64,000 nucleotides of DNA from a virus: the IMG/VR virus record IMGVR_UViG_3300000115_000005; one strand, written 5' to 3'. A program made the position numbers and the translations under genes. The notes under the pieces were generated by a model. It saw only the letters and a program-made list of their open reading frames with translations. It was not told where the DNA came from and ran no database searches. Shown here one piece after another: positions 9,763 through 61,135 of the stretch (position 1 is the first letter of the stretch; every line of letters begins with the position of its first letter).

Positions 9763-9908
9763 AGAAGTTAAAAGATTTTAAAAAAGAAATTACACAAAGA
9801 AATTTAGTACATTTAAATGCTCCTAAATCGGGTGCAGGTAAACACTCAGATCGTAAAAGACAAACGAAACAAGGTTATATGAAACATAAAGGAAAAATGT
9901 ATGGCTGA
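9759..9908 (+). CDS. Small basic protein (49 aa, not in ORF track)
   Basis: MKKLKDFKKEITQRNLVHLNAPKSGAGKHSDRKRQTKQGYMKHKGKMYG; overlaps both neighbours. Confidence 0.6.
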   Translation: MKKLKDFKKEITQRNLVHLNAPKSGAGKHSDRKRQTKQGYMKHKGKMYG

Positions 9909-12606
9909 TCAATATGGAAATTTTAGTTTATTCTCAAAAAAAAATATAGCTCGGCCAACAGGTTATCAATATCCTGTAGGATTAACTACTTTTTCAGAAG
10001 GCGGCGTTCCAACTGCAAACGCAGCCACAAATTCAACTGGCGGAACTCAAACAGTTAATGGTTCTATTGCTGTTCACACTTTTGATAGTTCAGCCACTTT
10101 TGTTCCTAAATTTGATGGGTTTGTTAATTTTCTTGTAGTTGGCGGAGGTGCTGGAGGTGCAGGTAACTTAGGTGGTGGTGGAGGTGCAGGTGGTGTTAGA
10201 CAAGGTATACTTTATGTAACAGAAGATACAACATACAATGTTTCTGTTGGTGGTGGAGGAGCTGGCGGAGGAACTGGAAGTGATGGAACAAATGGTGCAA
10301 ACGGAACTAATTCTATGTTCGCAACTGTTAGTTCATCAGGTGGAGGGTATGGTGCTCAAGGAGGCGGTGGTTCTCCAAACTCTGAAAACGGAGCTTTAGG
10401 TGGTTCAGGCGGAGGTGCAGGAGGATATGCAGCTGATAGAGATGGTGGTTTCGGTAATAAAGGTCTTATTTTTCCAGTAGAGGGTCATGATGGTGGTAGA
10501 GGTGATTCAGCTGGAGCAGCTCTTGGAGCTGGTGGCGGAGGCGGAGGTGCTGGAGCACCAGGCGGTGATAGTATTGGAGGTAGTCCTGGAGGTTCAGTTC
10601 CAAAAATGGGTTTTTCTCATGGTGGTGCAGGAGTAAATTCAAGTATAGATTTCACATCTACTGCTTATGGAGGTGGAGGTGGCGGAGGAATATATGGTCC
10701 AGCTAGCAGCTCACCGGCTGGACTTCCAGGATTTCCACAAGGCGGAGCCGGTGGTGGCGGTAATGGAGGATATGCTAGTGTAGCAGGTGTTGCAGGCACT
10801 ACGAATCGTGGTGGAGGCGGAGGCGGTGGAGGATATCCTGGTTCTGCTGGAGGTGCAGGCGGTTCAGGACGAATTATTATAAGTTACAATTCAACACAGG
10901 GTACTGGAACTGCAAACGGTTTTCCAGGATCTACTGGCGGTACAAAAACAACATCAAATGCTTATGCTGTTCATAAATTTACATCATCTGGAACTTTTGT
11001 TCCAGATTTTGATGGTTCGCTTGAAGCTTTAATTATTGCAGGAGGTGGAGGTAGTGGAAATGGTAATGGCGGTGGCGGTGGTGCAGGTGGTGTTTTATTA
11101 AAACAAGGAATAGCAGTTACAGATGGAACATCATATACTATAACAGTTGGTGATGGAGGAGCAGGTTCTTCTCCTGCTACAGCTACCTCTGCTGGAGCTA
11201 ACGGTGCTAATTCAGGTTTCGGTGATACTTACTATGCTCAAGGTGGTGGAGGTGGTGGGGGTGGTTATAATCCAGGTACTCACGGACGTGGTATGAGTGG
11301 AGGTTCCGGCGGCGGTGCTGGATATACCGGACCTAATGTTGGTGGTCTTGGTACTGATCATCAAGGAACAGCAGGCGCTAGTGCTCCAGCTTCCAATCGA
11401 CCTGCTGGTGGAGGTGGTGCAACTCAAGCAGGTCATGAGGGATCTGCTGGTACAGGTGGAAAAGGTGGCGATGGATTTTATTCTAATTTTGAAAATGAAG
11501 CTGTTACTGTTGCTTATGCAGGTGGTGGCGGAGGTGGAGCTGCTACACCTGGTGCAGGAGGTATAGGAGGTGGCGGTGCTGGGGGAGCTGCTGGCACAGC
11601 AAATCGTGGTGGCGGAGGCGGAGGCGGTGCGCCCAGTGCTGTTGGCCAAGCTGGCGGTTCAGGTGTTGTAATTGTAAGATACGCTAGAACTAACCAACCA
11701 GGAATTGTGTCACAAGGTGGTTCATCAACTGGCGGAACTATAAGCCTTCCGGGTGATGGTTATAGAGTGCATACTTTTAATAGTCCTGCAACATTTACAC
11801 CTTCAGAAGATATGGAAGTAGATTATCTAATCGTAGGTGGTGGCGGTGGTGGAGGTGGTAATTATAATGGTGGAGGTGGCGGCGCCGGTGGGTTAGTTTA
11901 TAGAGAACAACAATCAGTAACAGGCGGTACAGGATACCCAGTTGTTATTGGTGCTGGTGGAGCTGCAGGAAACGGACCACCAAATACTGCTGGAGCTAAC
12001 GGATCAAACTCTGTTGCATTTTCAGTAACAGCACTCGGAGGTGGAGGCGGTGGTCACTATGATGGACCAGGAGGTAGAGGTGGTGGTTCTGGAGGTGGCG
12101 GTGTTGGAGGACCAGGAGCCTCTAGACCTGGAGCACTTGCAGGATTAAGTTTTCAAGCTGCTACCGGAATTGGAGGAGCAGGTAGTTCAGGAGGTGGTGG
12201 TGTAATCGTAGATTGGGGTGCTTCAGGTGGCGGAGGCGGTGCTGGTGGAAAAGGTAGTACAGGTCATGCCGCTGCCCGTAACGGACCTGGAGGTGGAGGT
12301 TTAGCTTTCAACATATCAGGAGATATGGTAGGTTATGCCGGTGGCGGAGGTGCTGGTTCAACACCGAATGGTGTTACCGGAGGAATAGGTGGTTTCGGAG
12401 GTGGAGCTAATGGCGCCTCTCAAGCTGCAACCGTAGATGCAATTGCGAATCGAGGTGGTGGAGGTGGAGGTGGTTACACACCAGCTTCACCAGCTGGGGG
12501 ATCAGCCGGAGGTTCAGGTGTTGTAATTGTAAGATATAAACAAAGTAAAGTTCAAACAGCAGAAGAAAAATATTCTATTGGCGGTGCAACGGGAGGTCCG
12601 GTATAA
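9901..12606 (+). CDS. Glycine-rich repeat protein (three domains), probable virion fibre/decoration
   Basis: Three units HxF.S..TF.P...L(V/I)(V/I)GGG ... GGSG.(V/I)I(V/I).Y; 26-nt exact DNA repeat at 11656-11681 and 12511-12536. Confidence 0.75.
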   Translation: MADQYGNFSLFSKKNIARPTGYQYPVGLTTFSEGGVPTANAATNSTGGTQTVNGSIAVHTFDSSATFVPKFDGFVNFLVVGGGAGGAGNLGGGGGAGGVRQGILYVTEDTTYNVSVGGGGAGGGTGSDGTNGANGTNSMFATVSSSGGGYGAQGGGGSPNSENGALGGSGGGAGGYAADRDGGFGNKGLIFPVEGHDGGRGDSAGAALGAGGGGGGAGAPGGDSIGGSPGGSVPKMGFSHGGAGVNSSIDFTSTAYGGGGGGGIYGPASSSPAGLPGFPQGGAGGGGNGGYASVAGVAGTTNRGGGGGGGGYPGSAGGAGGSGRIIISYNSTQGTGTANGFPGSTGGTKTTSNAYAVHKFTSSGTFVPDFDGSLEALIIAGGGGSGNGNGGGGGAGGVLLKQGIAVTDGTSYTITVGDGGAGSSPATATSAGANGANSGFGDTYYAQGGGGGGGGYNPGTHGRGMSGGSGGGAGYTGPNVGGLGTDHQGTAGASAPASNRPAGGGGATQAGHEGSAGTGGKGGDGFYSNFENEAVTVAYAGGGGGGAATPGAGGIGGGGAGGAAGTANRGGGGGGGAPSAVGQAGGSGVVIVRYARTNQPGIVSQGGSSTGGTISLPGDGYRVHTFNSPATFTPSEDMEVDYLIVGGGGGGGGNYNGGGGGAGGLVYREQQSVTGGTGYPVVIGAGGAAGNGPPNTAGANGSNSVAFSVTALGGGGGGHYDGPGGRGGGSGGGGVGGPGASRPGALAGLSFQAATGIGGAGSSGGGGVIVDWGASGGGGGAGGKGSTGHAAARNGPGGGGLAFNISGDMVGYAGGGGAGSTPNGVTGGIGGFGGGANGASQAATVDAIANRGGGGGGGYTPASPAGGSAGGSGVVIVRYKQSKVQTAEEKYSIGGATGGPV

Positions 12607-19957: not shown

Positions 19958-20034
19958 TGGTCGGAGTGAAATGATTTGAACATTTGATCTCCTGCTCCCA
20001 AAGCAGGCGCCTTACCAGACTAGGCCACACTCCG
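19958..20034 (-). tRNA. tRNA-Pro(TGG)
   Basis: CGGAGTG...CCTGC-TTTGGGA-GCAGG...TTCAAAT...CACTCCG-A-CCA; complete cloverleaf with encoded CCA. Confidence 0.93.
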
Positions 20035-21355: not shown

Positions 21356-21610
21356 TCACCTACGGTTGCTGGGATCTCTTCTCGACTCATGTACTATCTC
21401 ACCTCTTATAAATTTAATTGTAAACTCTATACCAATCGCCGCAAAAATGGCTATGACAGTTGCCAGAATAAATGTAAACCAATACATAAAAGTATCTAAC
21501 CAATCACTTGGTGATGATCCAACACCCACTATATCTATCTTTAAAGATTGATTCGCTATATCATAAGAATGATCCACTATGATCGGTAAAAAATTCAGTA
21601 TCAATTCCAT
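21356..21610 (-). CDS. Single-TM hypothetical protein
   Basis: Hydrophobic segment. Confidence 0.5.
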   Translation of the reverse strand: MELILNFLPIIVDHSYDIANQSLKIDIVGVGSSPSDWLDTFMYWFTFILATVIAIFAAIGIEFTIKFIRGEIVHESRRDPSNRR

Positions 21611-21613
21611 AAT

Positions 21614-21724
21614 TTAAAAAATCCCATAAGTTTTCAACATAATTAAAGTAGTGCTTGTTGCAATTGTACTAATCGCAATTGTATGAACTATTTGACAGAT
21701 TTTATCTCTCGTATCCTTCTTCAT
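21614..21724 (-). CDS. Small TM peptide B (36 aa)
   Basis: MKKDTRDKICQIVHTIAISTIATSTTLIMLKTYGIF; GGAG RBS; paralog of the upstream peptide. Confidence 0.65.
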   Translation of the reverse strand: MKKDTRDKICQIVHTIAISTIATSTTLIMLKTYGIF

Positions 21725-21819
21725 AAAACTCCATAAGTCCTTAACATAATGAGTGATGTATTGATAGCCACACAGGTGACTGAAAATGCACTAATTGTTA
21801 AACATATTTTCTGATACAT
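21721..21819 (-). CDS. Small TM peptide A (32 aa)
   Basis: MYQKICLTISAFSVTCVAINTSLIMLRTYGVL; GGAGA RBS. Confidence 0.65.
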   Translation of the reverse strand: MYQKICLTISAFSVTCVAINTSLIMLRTYGVL

Positions 21820-21836
21820 AATTTCTCCAAAATAAG

Positions 21837-21876
21837 TGAGAGTTTTATTTAAAAAGTCCACTACTCTCAAAGGACT
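21837..21876 (-). ncRNA. H-type RNA pseudoknot
   Basis: Stem 1 AGUCC/GGACU and stem 2 UGAGAGU/ACUCUCA are interleaved, with an A/U-rich last loop. Confidence 0.65.
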
Positions 21877-22091
21877 CGCACATTTGGTTTTTTAAAGAAA
21901 CCGACCACGCACCGTGGGAAAACTTCTTGTTATTAGAGTTTATTCTTTCTGAAGAAAAACCCTGCCATGATAGGCTAAAAACGACAATAGGCTTGAGTTG
22001 TTACTACTGTTCTGCATTTGCGTTTTACAGAAGCTCTTTGTATCAAGGTATCTCGGATATCGCACATTACCTCTGACCCTTAAAATTAGAT

Positions 22092-22208
22092 TCGTCTATA
22101 AGGGGATTTGAACCCCCATCTTCAAAGCGATCAACTTTGACGTTTTAATAGCTAAAGAACCACTATTCTAGGAAGTATTACTACTTCATCATTAAACTAT
22201 ATACAACG
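22092..22208 (-). ncRNA. tRNA-like RNA (GAU anticodon loop) with 48-nt D-loop
   Basis: T arm GGGGG-UUCAAAU-CCCCU; anticodon arm UCAAAG-UUGAUCG-CUUUGA; D stem GUUU/AAAC; imperfect acceptor stem; no encoded CCA. Confidence 0.65.
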
Positions 22209-22368
22209 TTTTTTTACACCGAGTTTTCCCTATCATGTTTCGGATAGATGCTTGATGCTGAATCTAATACAATCATAACAACTCAAATTCTTAAAATCTT
22301 TATAAATTAAGACTGATGCACCAGTTCTATTCTCTTACGAGGTAGACGTTTTCTTAATCTATGAGTCC

Positions 22369-22397
22369 ATTCTATATGAGTATGTATAAAATGTCAA
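22369..22397 (-). promoter_or_regulatory. Early sigma70-type promoter
   Basis: TTGACA-17-TAGAAT-GGACTCATAG. Confidence 0.85.
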
Positions 22398-22734
22398 CAG
22401 CTAATTTCAATTACTTCTAGTACCTGTTGTTGTTGTAAAAGTACTACAAGTACCACGAAAACCATGAAGTACCATCATAACATAGAGTGGCCTAAGTGTG
22501 AGGTAAAGTCCCAAAGATACTACGAAAAAAGGTACCGAGTGATTTTTCCACCGGAAAAAAATTAAGTGGTGCTTTAGTGGAGGGAATCAATTTTCGACCA
22601 GAGTAAAACAAAATCTAAGGATCACTAGGGGGTCTGTCGTGCTGGGGTGGGTAACTCTGCCAACTGTATATGGGGGGCTGCAGCGACCATGTAGCTTGCC
22701 TACCGACCGAAAAAAGACTCTTCGGCCGAAGTAT

Positions 22735-41979: not shown

Positions 41980-42387
41980 TCATCTGGTTTTGCTCCCGAT
42001 AACTCGTTGCATTTGTTCAGCAGCTGCTGAAATTTGTTTCAATTTTAATCTACAATAGGTATTTGAAACATTACCTCCGGTATCATATCGAGATTTAAAA
42101 TCCAAAATTAAATTATGTAAATCTACTAAAAGATTATGTGTATCTTCATTTCTTGGTATGTGCTGTGTATAATTAACAGCAAACATTGAACTATTATATA
42201 GTTGATCAACAAGTGCATAATTAAAAACTCTAGCATCACAAAATGGTATTGAAATCTGTGATATAGTTTTAATTTGAGTAACACTCATATATTCATTATT
42301 ATCATATTTTGATGTTCTATAAGCATCAATCACACTACAACCAGATAAGATTAATATTACACTAATTAACGCTATCGTCTTTTTCAT
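41980..42387 (-). CDS. Lipoprotein
   Basis: Lipobox LSGC. Confidence 0.65.
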   Translation of the reverse strand: MKKTIALISVILILSGCSVIDAYRTSKYDNNEYMSVTQIKTISQISIPFCDARVFNYALVDQLYNSSMFAVNYTQHIPRNEDTHNLLVDLHNLILDFKSRYDTGGNVSNTYCRLKLKQISAAAEQMQRVIGSKTR

Positions 42388-48661: not shown

Positions 48662-48970
48662 TTAGCAGTTCCATTTTCTTAAAGCTTTATTAATTCGGCT
48701 ATCTGGATCTCTAGCTGTTTTAGCTGAGGTTAGCTTCTTTTTCATGCCTTTCATTCTCCGGCAGAATGATAATCTTCTCTTAGCAGACTTTGAACCTTTT
48801 TTTAATTTACTTGGTTTTGTTGTAACTGCTGTTTGTAACTTTGATCCTGGATTTTCACGGCGATATGAGTCAACACCTTTTTGGTTTAAACCACCATCTG
48901 GATCTTTGCCAGCGGACCTTGTCCATGCAGGTGATTTATCTTCCTCTATAAACTGTATAAATTTTTTCAT
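48662..48970 (-). CDS. Conserved basic phage protein with capsid-targeting-like N-terminus
   Basis: MKKFIQFIEE; KSPAW.R..GK...GGLN.KG...RRLSFC.RM...ALRKWNC. Confidence 0.7.
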   Translation of the reverse strand: MKKFIQFIEEDKSPAWTRSAGKDPDGGLNQKGVDSYRRENPGSKLQTAVTTKPSKLKKGSKSAKRRLSFCRRMKGMKKKLTSAKTARDPDSRINKALRKWNC

Positions 48971-50853
48971 TACCCTGTTCCTGGAAATCGTTTTGCTCTA
49001 AAAGTTTTTAAATTAATACCAACTTTTTTAAGTTCATCTTCCTTTTGTGCTGAAATAGAAGCCGTAGTAGTATCACCTGTAAGTTCTTTAAACGGTATTA
49101 CTACACCTTTTTTTAATCGACCTTTATTGGTCAAACTATTATATTCTTTAGAATATGAATTAAGAGCCATTCCAGGTTCTATACCTTTGTCTATGGATTC
49201 ATATTGCGTGGTTTTCTCGGACGCCTTCTTTTCCGAGAGTTCGTTTGGTTTGTAGTATTCGCTATCTTGTGACCCGAAGTACCATGCGTTAAATGTGTTG
49301 TTGACATTCTTGGTTCCGAGTTTGCTCTTTTTTGTTTTATGTGATACTGCCTCGGAAAATTCTCTCTCAAGAACTCGTCCAAAGCTTTGTCTATTTCCTC
49401 TTTGATCACTTTCCTTATCATATTTCCAATCATATTCATTACTTAAATCCTCCTTCGTTATTTTACCTTTACCAAAATTAGAGACCATTACAGGTTTACC
49501 ACCTTTTCCTGGTCTATTTGCAACTGGGTCATGTTTACGCTTCACACGAACAGCAGCTGCACGTTCTTTTTTAGAAAGCTTAGCTCTCTTTTCTTTTGAC
49601 ATACATTTTGGTTTTGGCTCACCTGGCTTTCTTGCACATGGTCCAGCTACATTACCTTTTGAGTCGATTCTTTTCCAATCACCTTGTGGATGATCTTTAG
49701 AAAACCATTGCCTCAAATCTTCATCAAATGTATCTTCAAATAATTCATCAATACCTTTTATGTTATTGGACATTTTATCCTCTAACCATTCTTTTAAATC
49801 AAATATTCTTTGTTGAAAGTGGTACTCTGTTAAATCTTCTGAGTTATCAAATTCAATGTAATCTTCTTTAAAAACATCTTCAAAATATGGCTTCACCATA
49901 TTTACTAATTCCCATTTTTGATGTCTTAGTTCCTCGTTCATGACTCTTTTTCTAGACTCATTTCTTAATTTTGAAACGTCATTTGTTGTAGAAACAAGAA
50001 CCATTGTTGTTTTATAATTTTGTTCTTCTAATTTTTCTTTTATTTTACTTAAAGTTTTAATCTCATGAGCATTACCATTAATTACAAGGTTTGATCTTTC
50101 ATGAGTATCATATCTTTTTTCCATGATATATTCAAAAGCTTTATCCGTATTCACTTCTCTAAGATTAAAATCTTCTAATACACTTTTGAATATGTAATCT
50201 TTACCAGAACCAGGACCACCAATTAAAAATACTGCAACATCTTCTGCAATCTTCATGCCTTTGCGAGTATCATTGTACATATGTTTTACATGAGAATCAC
50301 TCATTTTTGATGGAGCCCCTGATTTAAATGACTTGTAATCACCTTTAACTGCGTGTCCTCTCATCTTAGTGCCTGACATACCAGATGTAGTTTGACTATC
50401 TGGATCTCTATCACCAGATGAATGTATTGTTATCTTTTTAAAGTTGTATAATGCTTTTGAATGTGTACCATTATATCTATCGAGAGTGTTTTTAAACTCT
50501 GAGACACGGTCTGAACCTGCAACAACGTGTAGGTGTGATACACCTTTTTTATGTAACTTAGCTGCTTGTTTTAAATAATTTGGATTTTCTTTATCTGAAG
50601 TGGATAAATTGGCACGTGGAAATGCCTTCTTAGCGTGTTTTAACTTATCAGTTGGTGAAAGTGGATTTTTATTTTTGTCTTGACTATGAGATAATACAAC
50701 ATGGTGTGAACCACCAACTTGTCTTGCGACTTGTTGCACTTTATTTACAAGTTTTTCATGGCCTTTTGTAATCGGGTTCATTCTACCGAATGACATTACG
50801 GCATGATTATCTTTTTTTGATAGATTTTCATCTATGTAGTCTAGAAATTTCAT
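48970..50853 (-). CDS. HxGH-type nucleotidyltransferase fused to a P-loop kinase and basic C-terminal modules
   Basis: FGRMNPITKGH, VAGSDR, MSGTKMR; IGGPGSGKD Walker A. Confidence 0.75.
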   Translation of the reverse strand: MKFLDYIDENLSKKDNHAVMSFGRMNPITKGHEKLVNKVQQVARQVGGSHHVVLSHSQDKNKNPLSPTDKLKHAKKAFPRANLSTSDKENPNYLKQAAKLHKKGVSHLHVVAGSDRVSEFKNTLDRYNGTHSKALYNFKKITIHSSGDRDPDSQTTSGMSGTKMRGHAVKGDYKSFKSGAPSKMSDSHVKHMYNDTRKGMKIAEDVAVFLIGGPGSGKDYIFKSVLEDFNLREVNTDKAFEYIMEKRYDTHERSNLVINGNAHEIKTLSKIKEKLEEQNYKTTMVLVSTTNDVSKLRNESRKRVMNEELRHQKWELVNMVKPYFEDVFKEDYIEFDNSEDLTEYHFQQRIFDLKEWLEDKMSNNIKGIDELFEDTFDEDLRQWFSKDHPQGDWKRIDSKGNVAGPCARKPGEPKPKCMSKEKRAKLSKKERAAAVRVKRKHDPVANRPGKGGKPVMVSNFGKGKITKEDLSNEYDWKYDKESDQRGNRQSFGRVLEREFSEAVSHKTKKSKLGTKNVNNTFNAWYFGSQDSEYYKPNELSEKKASEKTTQYESIDKGIEPGMALNSYSKEYNSLTNKGRLKKGVVIPFKELTGDTTTASISAQKEDELKKVGINLKTFRAKRFPGTG

Positions 50854-50887
50854 AAGCCTCTGCAGCTAATAAGTTAATTATTTCTGT

Positions 50888-50895
50888 TATTTATA
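50888..50895 (-). promoter_or_regulatory. T4-type late promoter
   Basis: TATAAATA. Confidence 0.75.
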
Positions 50896-50898
50896 CAT

Positions 50899-51657
50899 TT
50901 AAGTTTTTATGGTTAGCACATCTCCATCAACAAATTGTTCTACTCCTGCTTTTTCATCAACTGGTCTAGATGCAGGTACAAATGGTGTATTATCAGAACT
51001 TCCACCACCTTGATTTCTGCCAAACTCTAAAGGTTGTTTCCAATGTATTTCACCTCTTTCAAATACAATTACACTATCATAAAATGTAATTGATTGTGTG
51101 GATCTAGTGAAATCATCTGGTTCTACCTGACCTTTTGTATGATCTGCATTGAGTTTATCAACCAAGTTTTTAGATACATTTACAATTGATTCTGGTTCAT
51201 TTAGACCACCACCATGAGTATCTTTCCAATAAGCTGCGTGTGTATCTTCAACAAGATAAACTCCGTTCTTAGACATCTTTGAGTACAAATACTGGAATGT
51301 TTTGTTTACATGAGCGACTTGATGACTACCATCATCTATGATAATATCAAATTCACCAAATTCATCTACTAACTCTTGTAAAAATTTTTCATCTGATTGA
51401 TCACCGATACGAATAATAGTACCTGGTATTTCATAGTTTGAACAAGATGGTGTTATATCAATTGCAACTATCTTTGAAAGTGGGCCAAAATATTTCTGCC
51501 ACATAGGTAGAGAACCACCATTTAAAACACCAATCTCTAATATCTTTACTGGTTTATTTCTAAACCTTTCAAAATGTTTTTCATATATTGGAAAGTAATG
51601 TGTCCATCTTGTAATTTTATTACCATCATTCTCTAAAAAGTATTTCCATAAATTCAT
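50899..51657 (-). CDS. Class I SAM-dependent (sugar O-)methyltransferase
   Basis: LEIGVLNGGSL, IGDQSD, DIIIDDGSH, YLVED. Confidence 0.85.
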   Translation of the reverse strand: MNLWKYFLENDGNKITRWTHYFPIYEKHFERFRNKPVKILEIGVLNGGSLPMWQKYFGPLSKIVAIDITPSCSNYEIPGTIIRIGDQSDEKFLQELVDEFGEFDIIIDDGSHQVAHVNKTFQYLYSKMSKNGVYLVEDTHAAYWKDTHGGGLNEPESIVNVSKNLVDKLNADHTKGQVEPDDFTRSTQSITFYDSVIVFERGEIHWKQPLEFGRNQGGGSSDNTPFVPASRPVDEKAGVEQFVDGDVLTIKT

Positions 51658-51658
51658 A

Positions 51659-52363
51659 TCAATATTCCTCTGTTTTTCCTGTTCCAGCCATAATACCTTC
51701 AACATACAATCTTTTAAGTTCTACCACATATTTTTTATTCAATTCTCTAAAATGTGCGTGTTCTGTATCTATATTATAAGCCATGCAAGAGTTTAGTGCT
51801 TTGTTTAAAGTTCTAATATAATCATCAATCAAAGAAGGACAAAGTGAAAAAAATCTAGTAATAAACAAGTGATCTGTTACACTTTTATCTGGCATCCAAG
51901 TTTCAATTCTTTCTTTAAAAACGTATTTACCAAATAAATTAGAGTTGTCATATATTCCAATATTAAACTTATCTTGTAATAACGATCTAGCTGAATATTT
52001 GAAAATTCTTTTTACAGAGTATAACAGTTTAGCTAATTCTGGGTGTTGTTTCAATAAAAAAAGTGTCTTAAGCAACAAAGTAATTTCAGCTTCACTCTTT
52101 CTACCAGTCTTAGATAATTCTCTCACTTGTTCATCATGAGCCCAATATACTTGTCCATTAACTAACTTGTCTATTTGATTACTTTTTTCATCTTCTATCC
52201 CTCCAGGTGATCCATCAGAGAGTAGAATATAAGCATTAGGTAGTTTTTCTCTCAGGTTTTTAAGACCATCTAAAGTTTGTTTAAGTCTATCATCTTTACT
52301 AATTACACCGATTGTAGGCTCTAAAGCTGATGTTACAATAAATAAATTTTTATCGGGTATCAT
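51659..52363 (-). CDS. Glycosyltransferase-like hypothetical protein
   Basis: FIVTSA...R..QT, IFKYSAR motif; located in glycan cluster. Confidence 0.5.
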   Translation of the reverse strand: MIPDKNLFIVTSALEPTIGVISKDDRLKQTLDGLKNLREKLPNAYILLSDGSPGGIEDEKSNQIDKLVNGQVYWAHDEQVRELSKTGRKSEAEITLLLKTLFLLKQHPELAKLLYSVKRIFKYSARSLLQDKFNIGIYDNSNLFGKYVFKERIETWMPDKSVTDHLFITRFFSLCPSLIDDYIRTLNKALNSCMAYNIDTEHAHFRELNKKYVVELKRLYVEGIMAGTGKTEEY

Positions 52364-53415
52364 TTACCACTCTTCAACAATGTTAAGTATTGGTCTAAGT
52401 CATCTTTATCTCTTTTAAGATTGATTGCTGTTGCTCTAGGGTATGGGTTTTGATTGTGAAAATCATTTATTAATATCCTATCTGCATTTGGTAACCCAAT
52501 CAATAATTCATAATCTTTAAATCCTAAATTATCAAGTGTAGCTCGTGTATATTCTTCAACTTCTTTTTCTCTTGCTGTAGTAAAAACAAACTTAGATCCA
52601 TTTTTCTGTAAGTCTAAAAGTACCTTTACATTTTTTTCAAGAGGCTTACCTAGTACAGACATTGCATTATTACCGACTCTGCTCTGCGATTTCACAACGG
52701 TGCCATCTATATCACAAAATATAACTGGTTTATTATTCCATTCAAACCAATCATTAGCAGTTCCAACATCTACATAATCTTCCACATATTTTGTGTAGAA
52801 TACTTCTTCGTTATATAAAGCTCTTGCAATTACATCTGATACAAATATTTCACCATCAGTAAGAATTTCTCTATAATTATCTAAGAATACTTTGGCTGAT
52901 TCAAACTTATAACCACCAACACAAAATATATCAGATACAACTTTCTTTTCTATAATTTGGTTTATGATACCTTGTTCATTTGAAATGATAAAACTTTTAG
53001 AGGATAACTTTTTCAATACTTCATGAAATGATATATTAGAAACACAAACATAGTTACCCTCAGTACATTTATGTTTGAAAAAACTATCACAATCCTTGAT
53101 AAAAATTTCATCATTTTCATCTATGGGCATTTTTTCTAATATTTGATAAACAGTTTCAGCAGGTCCTCTTGTAGGATTATCTAAGATTACAATGTTTATT
53201 CTAAATCCATATTGTTCACGAATAAACTCTGAAGCTTGATATGCCTTATCATGTTCTTTTAAAATACCAATTGTAATATTATATTTCTCATCATCTAAGA
53301 ATTGTTCTATCGCATTATGAAACATCATCTTATTGTGTCGGCCAAATAAAAGAAATTTTGGTTTCATATTAGGAAATCTGGAAGAAGCCCCAGCGGCTGG
53401 TATAATTATTTCCAT
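52360..53415 (-). CDS. Sugar nucleotidyltransferase fused to a HAD phosphatase
   Basis: IIPAAGASSRF..KP, DCD; FCDIDGTV, TTAR, LIND. Confidence 0.8.
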   Translation of the reverse strand: MEIIIPAAGASSRFPNMKPKFLLFGRHNKMMFHNAIEQFLDDEKYNITIGILKEHDKAYQASEFIREQYGFRINIVILDNPTRGPAETVYQILEKMPIDENDEIFIKDCDSFFKHKCTEGNYVCVSNISFHEVLKKLSSKSFIISNEQGIINQIIEKKVVSDIFCVGGYKFESAKVFLDNYREILTDGEIFVSDVIARALYNEEVFYTKYVEDYVDVGTANDWFEWNNKPVIFCDIDGTVVKSQSRVGNNAMSVLGKPLEKNVKVLLDLQKNGSKFVFTTAREKEVEEYTRATLDNLGFKDYELLIGLPNADRILINDFHNQNPYPRATAINLKRDKDDLDQYLTLLKSGK

Positions 53416-57680: not shown

Positions 57681-58910
57681 TTACTTGTCCCAAGTTTTTT
57701 TAGCCGTGAAATTCTGATGTGAAAATTCTAGTCGATCAACAAGTTTCAATGCACCACCAGATAGCTTATCTACGGCAACAAAACCCTCTGGATTGGTGAT
57801 TCTAAATCCATCATCTGTTCTGACAAATGTATTTGTAACTTGTCGCATCTCTTGTAACTTACGAATGATGATTGTTTTTGATTCAACAATTGAGTTCATC
57901 AAGTTAAATATTTCAATTAGTTGTCTAGCTGAACCTCTTAAAAATCTCATCACTTCATTTTTTTCTTTTTGCCTTTTCTTTTTTGTATCTTCTCTTTTAG
58001 CTTTAATTATTTCTTTGTTCAATTTATTTTCTACATATCTAATTAAGTTTACAGTATGTGTAGAGGTGTTTCTAATCTTTTGGCCTTGTCTGACCATTTG
58101 ATTATTAAATATCTTTATTTCACCAAGTATTTTATCATTAACTGATAGACGATTCAATACTAATGAGTTTATCTTCTGTAATGTTTTACCTGCTTGTGAA
58201 AGTATATTGGTTATTTGTTTTGTTTCTGCTTCTGTAAATGTTGCTGTGCCAGAGGCATTGACAAAAGAAGCATCACGAAACCAAATATCTTTTGTTGGTT
58301 TTAATCTACCAATATCAATATTAAAAGATGGCTTCATTGTGTCTAAACTTCTACCTGAATATGAAGTATGAAAAACAATACCAAGTTGAGCTGCTTGCAT
58401 AGTTTTAGCAAGTGGTGTTGATTCTGGTACAGCGTAGACAATAGTGTTTGGTTGAAATGTGATGTATTTCTCTCCATCTATTTGTTCTTTTTTTATATCA
58501 CCTTTTGTAAACATCATATCGCCTTGCAATACACCTTTGATACCAAGTTTTGGTAAAAATGCCAAGGCTACTTTTAGTTTTTCATTTAAGCCACCACTTG
58601 GGTGATTTCTATCTATGTCTCTATCTGTATAGTTTAATTTTGGTGCTCTGTTAAAAACAGATTTAGTACCAACAAAAAACTTACCATTCTTTGGATTGAT
58701 ACCTGCGAAAACAGCTGGGGCACCATCCCATTTTGTTGTGACATTTATTTTTGATGTTGAACTACCTGCAAGCATATCTCTCAATGATTGTAGAAAGTTA
58801 ATTGATTCTCTGGCGCCAGTAACACCACGATTTAAAACATTATCTTCTAAATGTTCTAAATGAAGATTTTTATCTTGTCTGGCTTCTTCTAAAAATTCTG
58901 TGAAATTCAT
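57681..58910 (-). CDS. Conserved T4-like protein with ligase-type nucleotidyltransferase motifs
   Basis: KNLHLEHLED; TKWDG (KxDG), LQGD, EGFV, LKLV; N-terminus MNFTEFLEE. Confidence 0.6.
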   Translation of the reverse strand: MNFTEFLEEARQDKNLHLEHLEDNVLNRGVTGARESINFLQSLRDMLAGSSTSKINVTTKWDGAPAVFAGINPKNGKFFVGTKSVFNRAPKLNYTDRDIDRNHPSGGLNEKLKVALAFLPKLGIKGVLQGDMMFTKGDIKKEQIDGEKYITFQPNTIVYAVPESTPLAKTMQAAQLGIVFHTSYSGRSLDTMKPSFNIDIGRLKPTKDIWFRDASFVNASGTATFTEAETKQITNILSQAGKTLQKINSLVLNRLSVNDKILGEIKIFNNQMVRQGQKIRNTSTHTVNLIRYVENKLNKEIIKAKREDTKKKRQKEKNEVMRFLRGSARQLIEIFNLMNSIVESKTIIIRKLQEMRQVTNTFVRTDDGFRITNPEGFVAVDKLSGGALKLVDRLEFSHQNFTAKKTWDK

Positions 58911-59998
58911 TTTTTTACACCTGCGTATTGTAACTTTAACATAACTAGTTTACCTAGTTTACCTTTTGGACTACTTCTTCTAAAACCTGCATCACTCCTG
59001 GTTGTCATTTTAAGAGTGAGTTTTTTATTTGCTTTATCCATTAAATCAATAAACCACTCTTGAACAGAATTTTTATTCAAATAAGCTTTAACTTTAGTAA
59101 CTTTATCTATAAAATTAACTAATGGGTCGCCTTTTTCTTCAGCTTTTGCACCAACAGCTTTAACTAAAATTAAAGGTATCTCACCTTTTTGTGGAGCTTT
59201 TTGTAATCTAAATTCAGTCATAATCCATTCTTTGGTAGTTTTTACATCTTTATTTACTATTTTTACTAATTGTTCTCTGCTTATTTTATTTTGTTCAATA
59301 TATAATTCGTCAAATTTTCTAAGATTATTTTCATATAATTTGATTAAAGATTCTTTAAGAGTATCATTCATTTTTATACTCTTACCTCTATATTCATAAT
59401 AATTTTTTTCAGTAACACTTTTTGGAGCACCAACTTTTGAGTAAACATTTTCCCAAAGTCTTTTTTTTAATTTATCTTCTGCTTTAGAATCTATTTTTTC
59501 ATAGTAAGGCTGTTTTAAAGTTGTTCTAACATATGTATTTAATAAAGGTTCAGCTGATTTTTCTGTTCCAGCTTTTAAACTAATACCACTAATTGAGCTA
59601 TCTTTAAACATAAAAAAAATATCACCGGGATGATTAGATGGCACACCTTTTGGTTTAATTCTATAACCCCAAAAAACATTTTTTATTGGATTTGAGTCGT
59701 TTGTTTCATAGATATAATTTGTAATAGCAAAAGCATTATCTAATTTTTCCTTTAACAATCTAGGTTGTATTCTACTAAACGCATCTAATATAAATTTTTC
59801 AGCATTTGGTACATCACCCGGTGTGGTAAAACTTTTTTTAGATTTAGTGCTAGATAGATTTACAGTCTTAATAAATTCACCTAAATCCTCACCATTTTTC
59901 GGTTTAAACCCATTATTAAAAGCTAAAGCTGGGAATAATTCCGTAATCGTAGAATTTATTGTAGTCTGTTGACCGCCTGTTAAATATTTTGCCATCAT
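58907..59998 (-). CDS. PD-(D/E)xK nuclease-like protein
   Basis: TE, PGDIF...GISLK; CATAAATA at 60000-60007 upstream. Confidence 0.55.
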   Translation of the reverse strand: MMAKYLTGGQQTTINSTITELFPALAFNNGFKPKNGEDLGEFIKTVNLSSTKSKKSFTTPGDVPNAEKFILDAFSRIQPRLLKEKLDNAFAITNYIYETNDSNPIKNVFWGYRIKPKGVPSNHPGDIFFMFKDSSISGISLKAGTEKSAEPLLNTYVRTTLKQPYYEKIDSKAEDKLKKRLWENVYSKVGAPKSVTEKNYYEYRGKSIKMNDTLKESLIKLYENNLRKFDELYIEQNKISREQLVKIVNKDVKTTKEWIMTEFRLQKAPQKGEIPLILVKAVGAKAEEKGDPLVNFIDKVTKVKAYLNKNSVQEWFIDLMDKANKKLTLKMTTRSDAGFRRSSPKGKLGKLVMLKLQYAGVKK

Positions 59999-60016
59999 GT
60001 ATTTATGATAACACGA

Positions 60017-61135
60017 TTATCGAATTATGTCAATCTCTTTATCACCTGTCCATACTTCTAAGTCTTTTCTGAGTCTTTTGTCGTTTTTAAGAGACATATA
60101 TCTGCTTGAGGCCTTCTTGACCCACCATTTAAATATATTCTCCAGATAGTGTTTATCGTGGTTATCCTTGTCTGGAATCAACTTATCTGTCTTACCAGTC
60201 ACTACATCAACAAAGTTTGAGAAACCATAATTACAAGCGTAATATCGTTTCTTTTCAGTTAAATTAAGAGCTTTATTGATTGTTTTATTATATCTTTCCA
60301 AATCCTCACCATCTAAATTAGCCTTGATAAGAGCCTGTATTTTTGTAGATATTTTAAGTTTTCTTGATGAGGCATCTTCTGGTACTATCGGTTCACCAAC
60401 AGCTTTTTCCATATAATCTCTTAAATCTTCATATGGTTTGCCGTGCATCAACGGTAAAAAATTAGAATCTGTAAGACCTTTAAATCGTAAAAATGGCTTC
60501 ATGCCATCATACTGTGAACTAGACTTTGATGAACCATACAAACTGGTCGTTTCAAATAAACAAGTATTCATACCTGGATATTTTGTATTCATTCTTTCAC
60601 GAACAAAGTGTGAACAACAAATACCAGCCAATAATTTACCACCAAGGTAATTAAAACCAAATGGTTGTGATGGCACAATTGCAAAACCCATAATTGATGT
60701 TTTATTAAATGATACTGCTGTTTTAGCATCTTGTGTAAAAACACAATCTAATAGTTGATTTCTTGGTTTCATATTAATTACAGGAGAACCAATACGAATA
60801 AAACCAAGCCACTTTTTACTATTCGTTTCTAATACACCTAATCGTAATGATTTTCCTGGAATACTTGTCATATTGGAATGAGATGAAATAATTTTAACAT
60901 AAATGTCCCACATATTTTGGTTCATTTCATGTATTTCTATATTCATATCTTCTGGGTGCATATCAAAGTTATCAAATAAATCTATTTCAGGTCCCATTCC
61001 TGGTAATCCAAAGGACATTTTTTCAACTGTACTTACTTTTTGATCACGAATATAATCTGCAATACCATCAAATTTATCAAAGTAATCTGAGAATACTTTG
61101 GCACCGTGTATAGCTTGTTCTTTAGTTATTTTCAT
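60017..61135 (-). CDS. DUF4338/DruA-like conserved phage protein
   Basis: GFNYLGGKLLA, ETTSLYG..SQYDG. Confidence 0.6.
   Translation of the reverse strand: MKITKEQAIHGAKVFSDYFDKFDGIADYIRDQKVSTVEKMSFGLPGMGPEIDLFDNFDMHPEDMNIEIHEMNQNMWDIYVKIISSHSNMTSIPGKSLRLGVLETNSKKWLGFIRIGSPVINMKPRNQLLDCVFTQDAKTAVSFNKTSIMGFAIVPSQPFGFNYLGGKLLAGICCSHFVRERMNTKYPGMNTCLFETTSLYGSSKSSSQYDGMKPFLRFKGLTDSNFLPLMHGKPYEDLRDYMEKAVGEPIVPEDASSRKLKISTKIQALIKANLDGEDLERYNKTINKALNLTEKKRYYACNYGFSNFVDVVTGKTDKLIPDKDNHDKHYLENIFKWWVKKASSRYMSLKNDKRLRKDLEVWTGDKEIDIIR

Follow-up and report, generated by a model that had tools for sequence, protein, structure and literature searches.

What kind of RNA is made from a sequence that keeps all four arms of a tRNA but carries a 48-nt, base-paired segment where a short D-loop is expected? 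The question is raised by a tRNA-like domain on the minus strand of a 64,000-nt stretch of viral DNA (the window in what follows), where it lies at 22093-22206, within about 1 kb that is poor in ORFs (21610-22587). The window has a G+C content of 32% and encodes UvsX, a gp41-like helicase, a gp61-like primase, T4 RNase H, DenV and ribonucleotide reductase. Given these T4-type replication and repair proteins, and a helicase 58-62% identical to those of T4-like cyanophages, it belongs to an uncultured marine T4-like myovirus.

Read as a cloverleaf, the domain (positions 1-73) consists of an acceptor stem (22206-22200 with 22100-22094), U8 and A9, a 4-bp D stem GUUU/AAAC (22197-22194 with 22145-22142) that closes the 48-nt D-loop (22193-22146), an anticodon-like arm with a 6-bp stem and the loop UUGAUCG (22140-22122, loop 22134-22128), a variable region of 4 nt, and a T arm GGGGG-UUCAAAU-CCCCU with the canonical UUCAAAU loop (22117-22101). 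It thus shares with canonical tRNAs the T-loop, U8, the D stem, the length of the variable region and a 12-bp stack of acceptor and T arms (7+5), and it keeps an anticodon-like arm as well. The first-pass annotation, made from the letters of the window, had described most of these elements together with an imperfect acceptor stem, two hairpins in the D-loop and the lack of an encoded CCA, and we find every one of them on the minus strand where it had been placed.

The same annotation proposed searching with Rfam and ARAGORN, and the two programs disagree. The Rfam tRNA model RF00005 spans 22093-22206 (-) end to end with 30.5 bits against a gathering score of 29 (E-value 0.024 for the 64-kb window and 4227 families, or 0.00037 for the local 1 kb), while flagging a 44-nt insertion in the D-loop and two non-standard acceptor pairs. 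The acceptor mismatches of the window copy are U1xC72 and G3xG70; in the homologues described below, the 1-72 pair alone is mismatched. Two homologues also score above the cut-off of 29 (L023 with 35.2 bits and L017 with 32.5 bits), whereas copies of the L001 type fall below it and L007 reaches 26 bits. ARAGORN does not call the domain, its sole call in the window being a normal tRNA-Pro at 19958-20034. It also reports no tmRNA there, and since the anticodon-like arm and the D stem are both present, neither a standard nor a permuted tmRNA describes the domain. Compared with shuffled sequences the window copy gains modestly in folding energy (z = -2.0), and the copy in L023 has the four-arm cloverleaf as its minimum-energy fold (z = -4.0). 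The likeness to tRNA exceeds chance.

Relatives of the locus were found through its surroundings as well as through the RNA itself. A neighbouring 408-aa protein led to contigs L001-L006, each with a 70-76% identical copy of the non-coding region; the flanking genes are only 76-85% identical to those of the homologues. A 21-nt piece of the near-invariant region downstream matched 19 marine metagenome contigs, and a search with a neighbour protein supplied three further contigs that carry the domain (L040, L041 and L043) and added no new haplotype. An 88-aa upstream ORF gave one relative only, and the more distant relatives reached through a 113-aa neighbour protein (L029-L039) have no such RNA at that spot. 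The 1-kb region had no DNA match in an annotated phage collection, IMG/VR gave none with the two flanking proteins or with three DNA patterns (among them the conserved 3' module and the D-region motif), and species genomes had none to the tRNA-like pattern. Two matches to the 21-nt anchor in species genomes were discarded as chance, both lying inside unrelated GC-rich histidine-kinase genes.

A covariance model built on the tRNA-like domain, R1, scores 95-120 bits on every family member, i.e., on the window, L013, L043, L001, L015, L041, L020, L017, L023, L040 and L007 (the copy in L008 is truncated). These sequences represent six distinct haplotypes, which are mosaics of two alleles per arm and so point to recombination. 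Standard pairs fill 91.7% of the pair cells in the six haplotypes, compared with 45-55% when the 3' partners are slid. Double changes that preserve pairing occur at six pairs: the acceptor and anticodon-like stems contribute two each, the T stem and the first hairpin of the D-loop one each. The covariation score of 0.226 was reached by none of 500 column shuffles, whose mean was 0.110. Because the alignment of the haplotypes had been fitted to the model, we recounted the pairs in a plain MAFFT alignment of the whole surrounding RNA cassette, with no fitting to structure, and found 96.7% of cells paired against 38-47% with slid partners. Only one substitution breaks a stem (L020, U27 to G). No variation is seen in the T-loop, in the GUAA loop of the first hairpin, in the UGAUC core of the anticodon-like loop or in the 5' half of the D region. 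The domain is more conserved in sequence than the neighbouring protein genes, and identical copies of it adjoin neighbour proteins that differ by up to 24%. With six haplotypes and two alleles per arm, however, the covariation rests on few independent evolutionary events, and for copies of the L001 type RNAalifold prefers, in place of the acceptor stem, a competing 4-bp hairpin (GCAG/CUGC). A weak match to R1 elsewhere in the window, at 42046-42124 (-) with 23 bits and an E-value of about 0.01, is an AT-rich sequence with a T-arm-like hairpin; it is probably due to chance, and neither Rfam nor ARAGORN has a call there.

Since the acceptor, anticodon-like and T stems and the first hairpin all keep their pairing through six double changes, the domain does not behave like a decaying pseudogene. 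Homologues without compensatory changes had been named beforehand as the mark of a pseudo-tRNA, and the doubly changed pairs are the opposite of that. A functionless tRNA pseudogene that hitch-hikes in a recombination-prone region would fit the rejection by ARAGORN, the acceptor mismatches, the unencoded CCA, the lineage-specific indels of the D region and the many relatives in which the whole cassette is missing. It would fit poorly with the compensatory changes, with a single stem-breaking substitution, with invariant loops and with a conservation above that of the protein genes alongside. Comparison of the copies already disfavours it, and we regard it as very improbable.

The D-loop is where the domain departs most visibly from a tRNA. 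The first-pass annotation saw there an ordered insertion of two hairpins, one with a GNRA loop, and took it as an argument against simple decay. Both hairpins exist in the window, but the homologues separate them. Hairpin 1 (GAAGUA-GUAA-UACUUC, 22172-22187 (-)), a 6-bp stem under a GUAA tetraloop, is conserved and forms the top of an elongated D arm in the homologues; because its stem covaries, with an A-U to G-C double change, below an invariant loop, it is under selection, in line with that argument. Hairpin 2 (AAUAG...CUAUU, 22146-22167 (-)) is a 17-nt insertion present in the window, L013 and L043 only, while L001, L020, L017, L023, L007, L040 and L041 have nothing or a different short segment at that place. 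As an insertion specific to the window's lineage it lacks comparative support, and the two-hairpin loop is not a conserved design. In the minimum-energy folds of L023 and L001 the D stem runs on into hairpin 1 as a rod of approximately 14 bp with the GUAA cap, and the single D-region difference between L017 and L023 turns a U.G pair of this rod into C-G. Measured against the tRNA model, the window carries 44 extra nt here and the homologues 28. Going by these folds, the insert of the homologues is best seen as an elongated, GUAA-capped D arm, to which the window's lineage would have added an extra branch.

It had also been suggested that the tRNA fold serves as a scaffold to display the motif AGUAGUAA. 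This idea does not survive the comparison: the homologues read GGUAGUAA at that site, the G that they have at its first position is part of a covarying pair, and the second copy of AGUAGUAA in the window (22001-22008) is 3' strand of a long-range helix, P1, and differs in the homologues. A K-turn or box C/D reading of a conserved AUGAUGA was dropped by eye, the partner GA being missing in three haplotypes.

The helices around the domain show what it belongs to. A sigma-70-type early promoter with 11 of 12 consensus matches (TTGACA, 17-nt spacer, TAGAAT; 22369-22397 (-)) would start transcription near 22362, and equivalent strong promoters stand ahead of the homologous RNA region in L001, L017, L009 and others. 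Within the predicted transcript, P1 pairs 22270-22287 with 21992-22009 over 17 bp and closes a cassette, inside which P2 pairs 22260-22268 with 22085-22093 over 8 bp. A linker with a hairpin (22209-22259) separates P2 from the acceptor stem; it is specific to the window's lineage by alignment, and its counterpart in the homologues has about 10 nt. Two hairpins, P3 (about 22073-22045) and P4 (about 22032-22010), occupy the 3' part of the cassette fold (22010-22073). In a set of seven sequences P1 has 100% of its cells paired, with two double and four single-sided changes. P2 is 96% paired with one double change, P4 (7 bp) is 100% paired with one double change, and P3 differs in sequence between the lineages and forms a hairpin in both. 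In the window P2 continues straight into position 73 of the domain, and because its 3' strand directly abuts the 3' strand of the acceptor stem, the domain has no free 3' end. Judged from these pairings, the domain is part of an enclosed, optional cassette rather than a stand-alone gene. The cassette is about 300 nt long in the window, most relatives having a shorter version of about 230 nt, and the whole transcript comes to about 520 nt.

The cassette has a fixed site, between a 5' module, A, and a 3' module, Z. Module A (22306-22362 (-)) is Y-shaped, with a closing helix, a GUAA-capped hairpin and an ACUG/CAGU hairpin, and occurs in most related loci. Module Z (21840-21989 (-)) ends in two terminator-like hairpins (the first at 21917-21905) and is near-invariant in all 23 related loci; over about 120-150 nt it is the same block in L001-L025, far more conserved than the flanking genes. 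Between lineages, both strands of its terminator stems have changed without loss of pairing. Module Z is perhaps a conserved small RNA, or else it serves the operon as a regulatory 3' module. What lies between A and Z varies. The cassette is absent from many relatives: in L009, L024 and L025 module A folds alone and is joined directly to Z, in L010, L012, L014, L016 and L019 a different module takes its place, and in L018 and L022 the same P1 helix encloses another RNA module. These variants suggest that phages carry a family of interchangeable RNA cassettes, for which P1 looks like a generic closing stem and possibly acts as a processing stem. Several relatives also carry real tRNA genes (Pro, Thr, Gln and His) just upstream of the same conserved 3' module. 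With modules exchanged at a fixed site and tRNAs upstream, the locus is therefore a modular operon for tRNAs and small RNAs in a recombination-prone early region.

Other features of the locus were seen along the way. Module A (about 57 nt) is the most widespread 5' module of the operon, seen in L002, L009, L010, L014, L016, L017, L024 and L025, and the stem of its GUAA-capped hairpin shows a U-A to C-G change. It is the sole difference between L002 and L001 and is flanked there by an 11-nt direct repeat, which suggests insertion or loss by recombination between the repeats. At least three further structured, non-tRNA modules occupy the cassette site in L010, L012, L014, L016, L018, L019, L022, L023 and L008. 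Just downstream of the RNA operon two ORFs for small hydrophobic peptides (21614-21876 (-)) are conserved in distant relatives that lack the RNA operon there (L029 4630-4830, L035 3950-4150), so that peptides and RNA are separable units.

Could the domain nevertheless decode? As a working tRNA it would read as tRNA-Ile(GAU), or else belong to the frameshift type, whose anticodon loop is expanded. For such a function speak the score above the Rfam gathering cut-off, U33, the GAU triplet, the canonical T-loop, the A73 of the homologues, nucleotides able to form U8-A14 and A15-U48, and the loop of the L001 type, which reads as the usual Ile loop with one extra C. However, the 1-72 pair is mismatched in all copies (six of six haplotypes). 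Where a tRNA has a D-loop of about 7-11 nt whose G18-G19 builds the elbow, the domain has the GUAA-capped arm, an extension of 28-48 nt with no GG at the expected place, and E. coli tRNA-Tyr with an engineered insertion in its D-loop could not be detected in cells (PMC5397188). Instead of a 7-nt loop with U33 and a purine at 37, the window-type loop has C at 37 on a 6-bp stem, and loop length varies with the allele: the L001-type loop counts 8 nt, or 6 nt if closed by a C.A pair. In related phages the real genes for tRNA-Thr and tRNA-Pro encode CCA, whereas the domain does not, its 3' flank being paired in P2 and the domain itself locked between P2 and P1; CCA may be added after processing. 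We consider a decoding tRNA extremely unlikely. The domain derives from a tRNA and has almost certainly lost decoding, and it is very probably a conserved, non-decoding, tRNA-like domain of a larger non-coding RNA.

The closest precedents for such a domain are T4 species 1 RNA (rnaC), the YrlA Y RNAs and the tRNAs found inside GOLLD. T4 rnaC and rnaD are annotated as stable non-coding RNAs at the promoter-distal (3') end of the T4 tRNA cluster, a setting comparable to the operon of the window, and rnaC resembles the present domain in having a perfect T arm followed by an acceptor-like helix. The RNA of the window fits the same description: it is non-coding, its T arm and acceptor helix are tRNA-like, and it comes from the tRNA operon of a T4-type phage, the tRNAs lying upstream in relatives. 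Unlike rnaC, which does not pass the Rfam tRNA cut-off and sits at the end of its transcript, the present domain passes it, keeps four arms and is enclosed by helices in a cassette. Rfam has no family for rnaC and gives it a weak match to tRNA-Sec alone (17.5 bits), and R1 run against T4 (E <= 1) matches tRNA-Pro and tRNA-Gly and neither rnaC nor rnaD. In the T4 sequence itself, the T stem of rnaC (L026 1909-2047 (-)) has 5 bp without a mismatch and a GUUCGAAUC-type loop, and an 8-bp acceptor-like helix comes next.

In the YrlA Y RNAs, as here, a non-decoding tRNA-like module sits within a larger non-coding RNA (Chen et al. 2014, PMC4201824), and in some species that module is recognized by RNase P, CCA addition, TruB and DusA (PMC4201824). 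The present domain differs in retaining an anticodon-like arm and in its greatly lengthened D arm, and no Ro-binding helix is recognized in it. In GOLLD and ROOL, two phage RNAs from the vicinity of tRNA islands, the structure is held by kissing loops and GNRA/A-minor contacts, and GOLLD combines a conserved 3' part with a variable part or linker that sometimes holds a tRNA (PMC12286853). Compared with their 600-800 nt or more, the cassette has 230-300 nt, below a size of >500 nt, and the transcript about 520 nt; the region has no Rfam match to either, and the inner domain is a degenerate tRNA mimic rather than the working tRNA of GOLLD. By sequence the domain belongs to none of rnaC, YrlA and GOLLD. 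New here are a D arm that is elongated and ends in a GNRA cap, a non-canonical loop that is nonetheless conserved, long-range helices that enclose the domain and covary, and the exchange of cassettes at a fixed operon site in T4-like phages of the ocean.

As for function, the best explanation overall, which we put forward tentatively, is a tRNA-derived domain under selection, embedded in a cassette, that mimics tRNA for the sake of processing or stability. A 12-bp stack of acceptor and T arms is the minimal substrate of RNase P and of the enzymes that process tRNA 3' ends, and T4 species 1 RNA, like species 2, is matured by host tRNA-processing enzymes; mimicry is favoured because of this minimal substrate and the T4 parallel. 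The acceptor/T minihelix would attract the host's tRNA-processing enzymes, RNase P on the 5' side and a 3' endonuclease such as RNase Z, and possibly modification enzymes too. Their cuts would turn the RNA of the cassette into a stable, nuclease-resistant species, as in T4 species 1 RNA, with the GUAA-capped arm and the UGAUC loop perhaps acting as working surfaces toward a partner. That processing and stabilization are the main role of the domain is possible, though we would stop somewhat short of calling it likely: the D-loop rod removes the elbow that RNase P normally reads, CCA is unencoded, and a pure processing signal would not need a conserved anticodon-like loop and D-arm sequence. The broader explanation by mimicry has against it the competing hairpin in the acceptor region of L001-type copies and the absence of the cassette from many relatives.

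The main rival to mimicry for processing is that the RNA serves as a decoy or sponge, soaking up a tRNA-targeting protein of the host such as a defence system's anticodon nuclease. The anticodon-like stem-loop would then be the bait, and the enlarged D arm would exclude the RNA from translation. An invariant UGAUC loop core above a covarying stem is what a bait might look like, and an optional mosaic cassette in a hyperplastic early region is typical of accessory or counter-defence loci. Elsewhere in the window lie domains like those of RNA end repair (a PNKP-like phosphatase at 52360-53415, a nucleotidyltransferase plus P-loop kinase at 48970-50853), which would suit a host with tRNA as its target, although they are weak hits under the Pfam cut-offs. 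However, the loop copies no canonical 7-nt anticodon loop, given its C37 and, in the L001 type, its 8 nt or its 6 nt with C.A closing; no candidate nuclease or host presents itself, and nothing links the presence of the cassette to any defence gene. On balance a decoy is unlikely.

Apart from processing mimicry and bait, the RNA could be an ornate block that assembles with itself, as GOLLD and ROOL do, forming kissing-loop dimers through UGAUCA/UGAUCG (with G.U) while the GUAA loop docks within the same RNA or in a second one. Either allele has a six-letter loop core that can pair with itself, a property that their G-to-A difference leaves intact; a GNRA-capped rod and long-range helices are at hand, and the contacts and location of GOLLD and ROOL are those cited above. 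Two loop alleles may share a palindrome by chance, though, in a genome with an ordinary frequency of GATC, the cassette is three to four times smaller than GOLLD or ROOL, and no tetraloop receptor is identified, all of which makes self-assembly quite improbable. Still less can be said for a tether of the YrlA type, in which the tRNA-like module and a helix recruit Ro60 (Rsr) and an exonuclease. The architecture is alike, the stem of the tRNA-like module continuing into longer helices (PMC4201824), but Rfam at E <= 10 over 21700-22700 gives, besides RF00005, scattered weak matches with no YrlA or other Y RNA among them, and no TROVE (Ro60) domain is found in the eight ORFs of at least 400 aa in the window (seven by Pfam, the 469-aa helicase by PHROGs only). 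Together with the missing signature of a Ro-binding helix, this renders the tether highly improbable. At the DNA level, avoidance of GATC was rejected as an explanation, GATC being not unusual in the window (163 observed vs 192 expected).

Taken at its most ambitious, the arrangement of P1, P2, tRNA core, P3 and P4 would be a new class of exchangeable RNA module, swapped among marine T4-like phages at a fixed site of an early operon, whose core, with its GNRA-capped rod and self-complementary loop, is a dedicated tRNA mimic that jams tRNA-directed defence or drives an RNA-only assembly. We consider this conjecture unlikely. Phage tRNA clusters are now interpreted as protection from host attack on tRNA, but their non-coding companions (T4 species 1 and 2, GOLLD, ROOL and the Y RNAs) are functionally opaque. 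Here a tRNA has clearly been turned into a constrained, non-decoding domain and packaged in an exchangeable cassette in abundant phages of the ocean. At 100-300 nt and with natural allelic variants, domain and cassette make a small, tractable model for asking how tRNA mimicry benefits a phage and how phage genomes reshuffle RNA modules among themselves.

Elsewhere in the window, a cluster of genes on the minus strand (48970-53415 and 57681-61135) could concern RNA or nucleotide ends or defence, some of its matches lying below the Pfam cut-offs. It includes a 627-aa ORF (48970-50853) with weak matches to a cytidylyltransferase-like domain and a zeta-toxin-like P-loop kinase, a 351-aa ORF (52360-53415) with a weak match to a PNKP-type HAD phosphatase, and weak matches to DUF6267 (409 aa) and a DruA-like protein (372 aa). 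On the opposite strand, a 901-aa ORF (9901-12606 (+)) with the glycine-rich domain PF21722 stands out sharply from its surroundings in composition, with 49% G+C in this genome of 32%.
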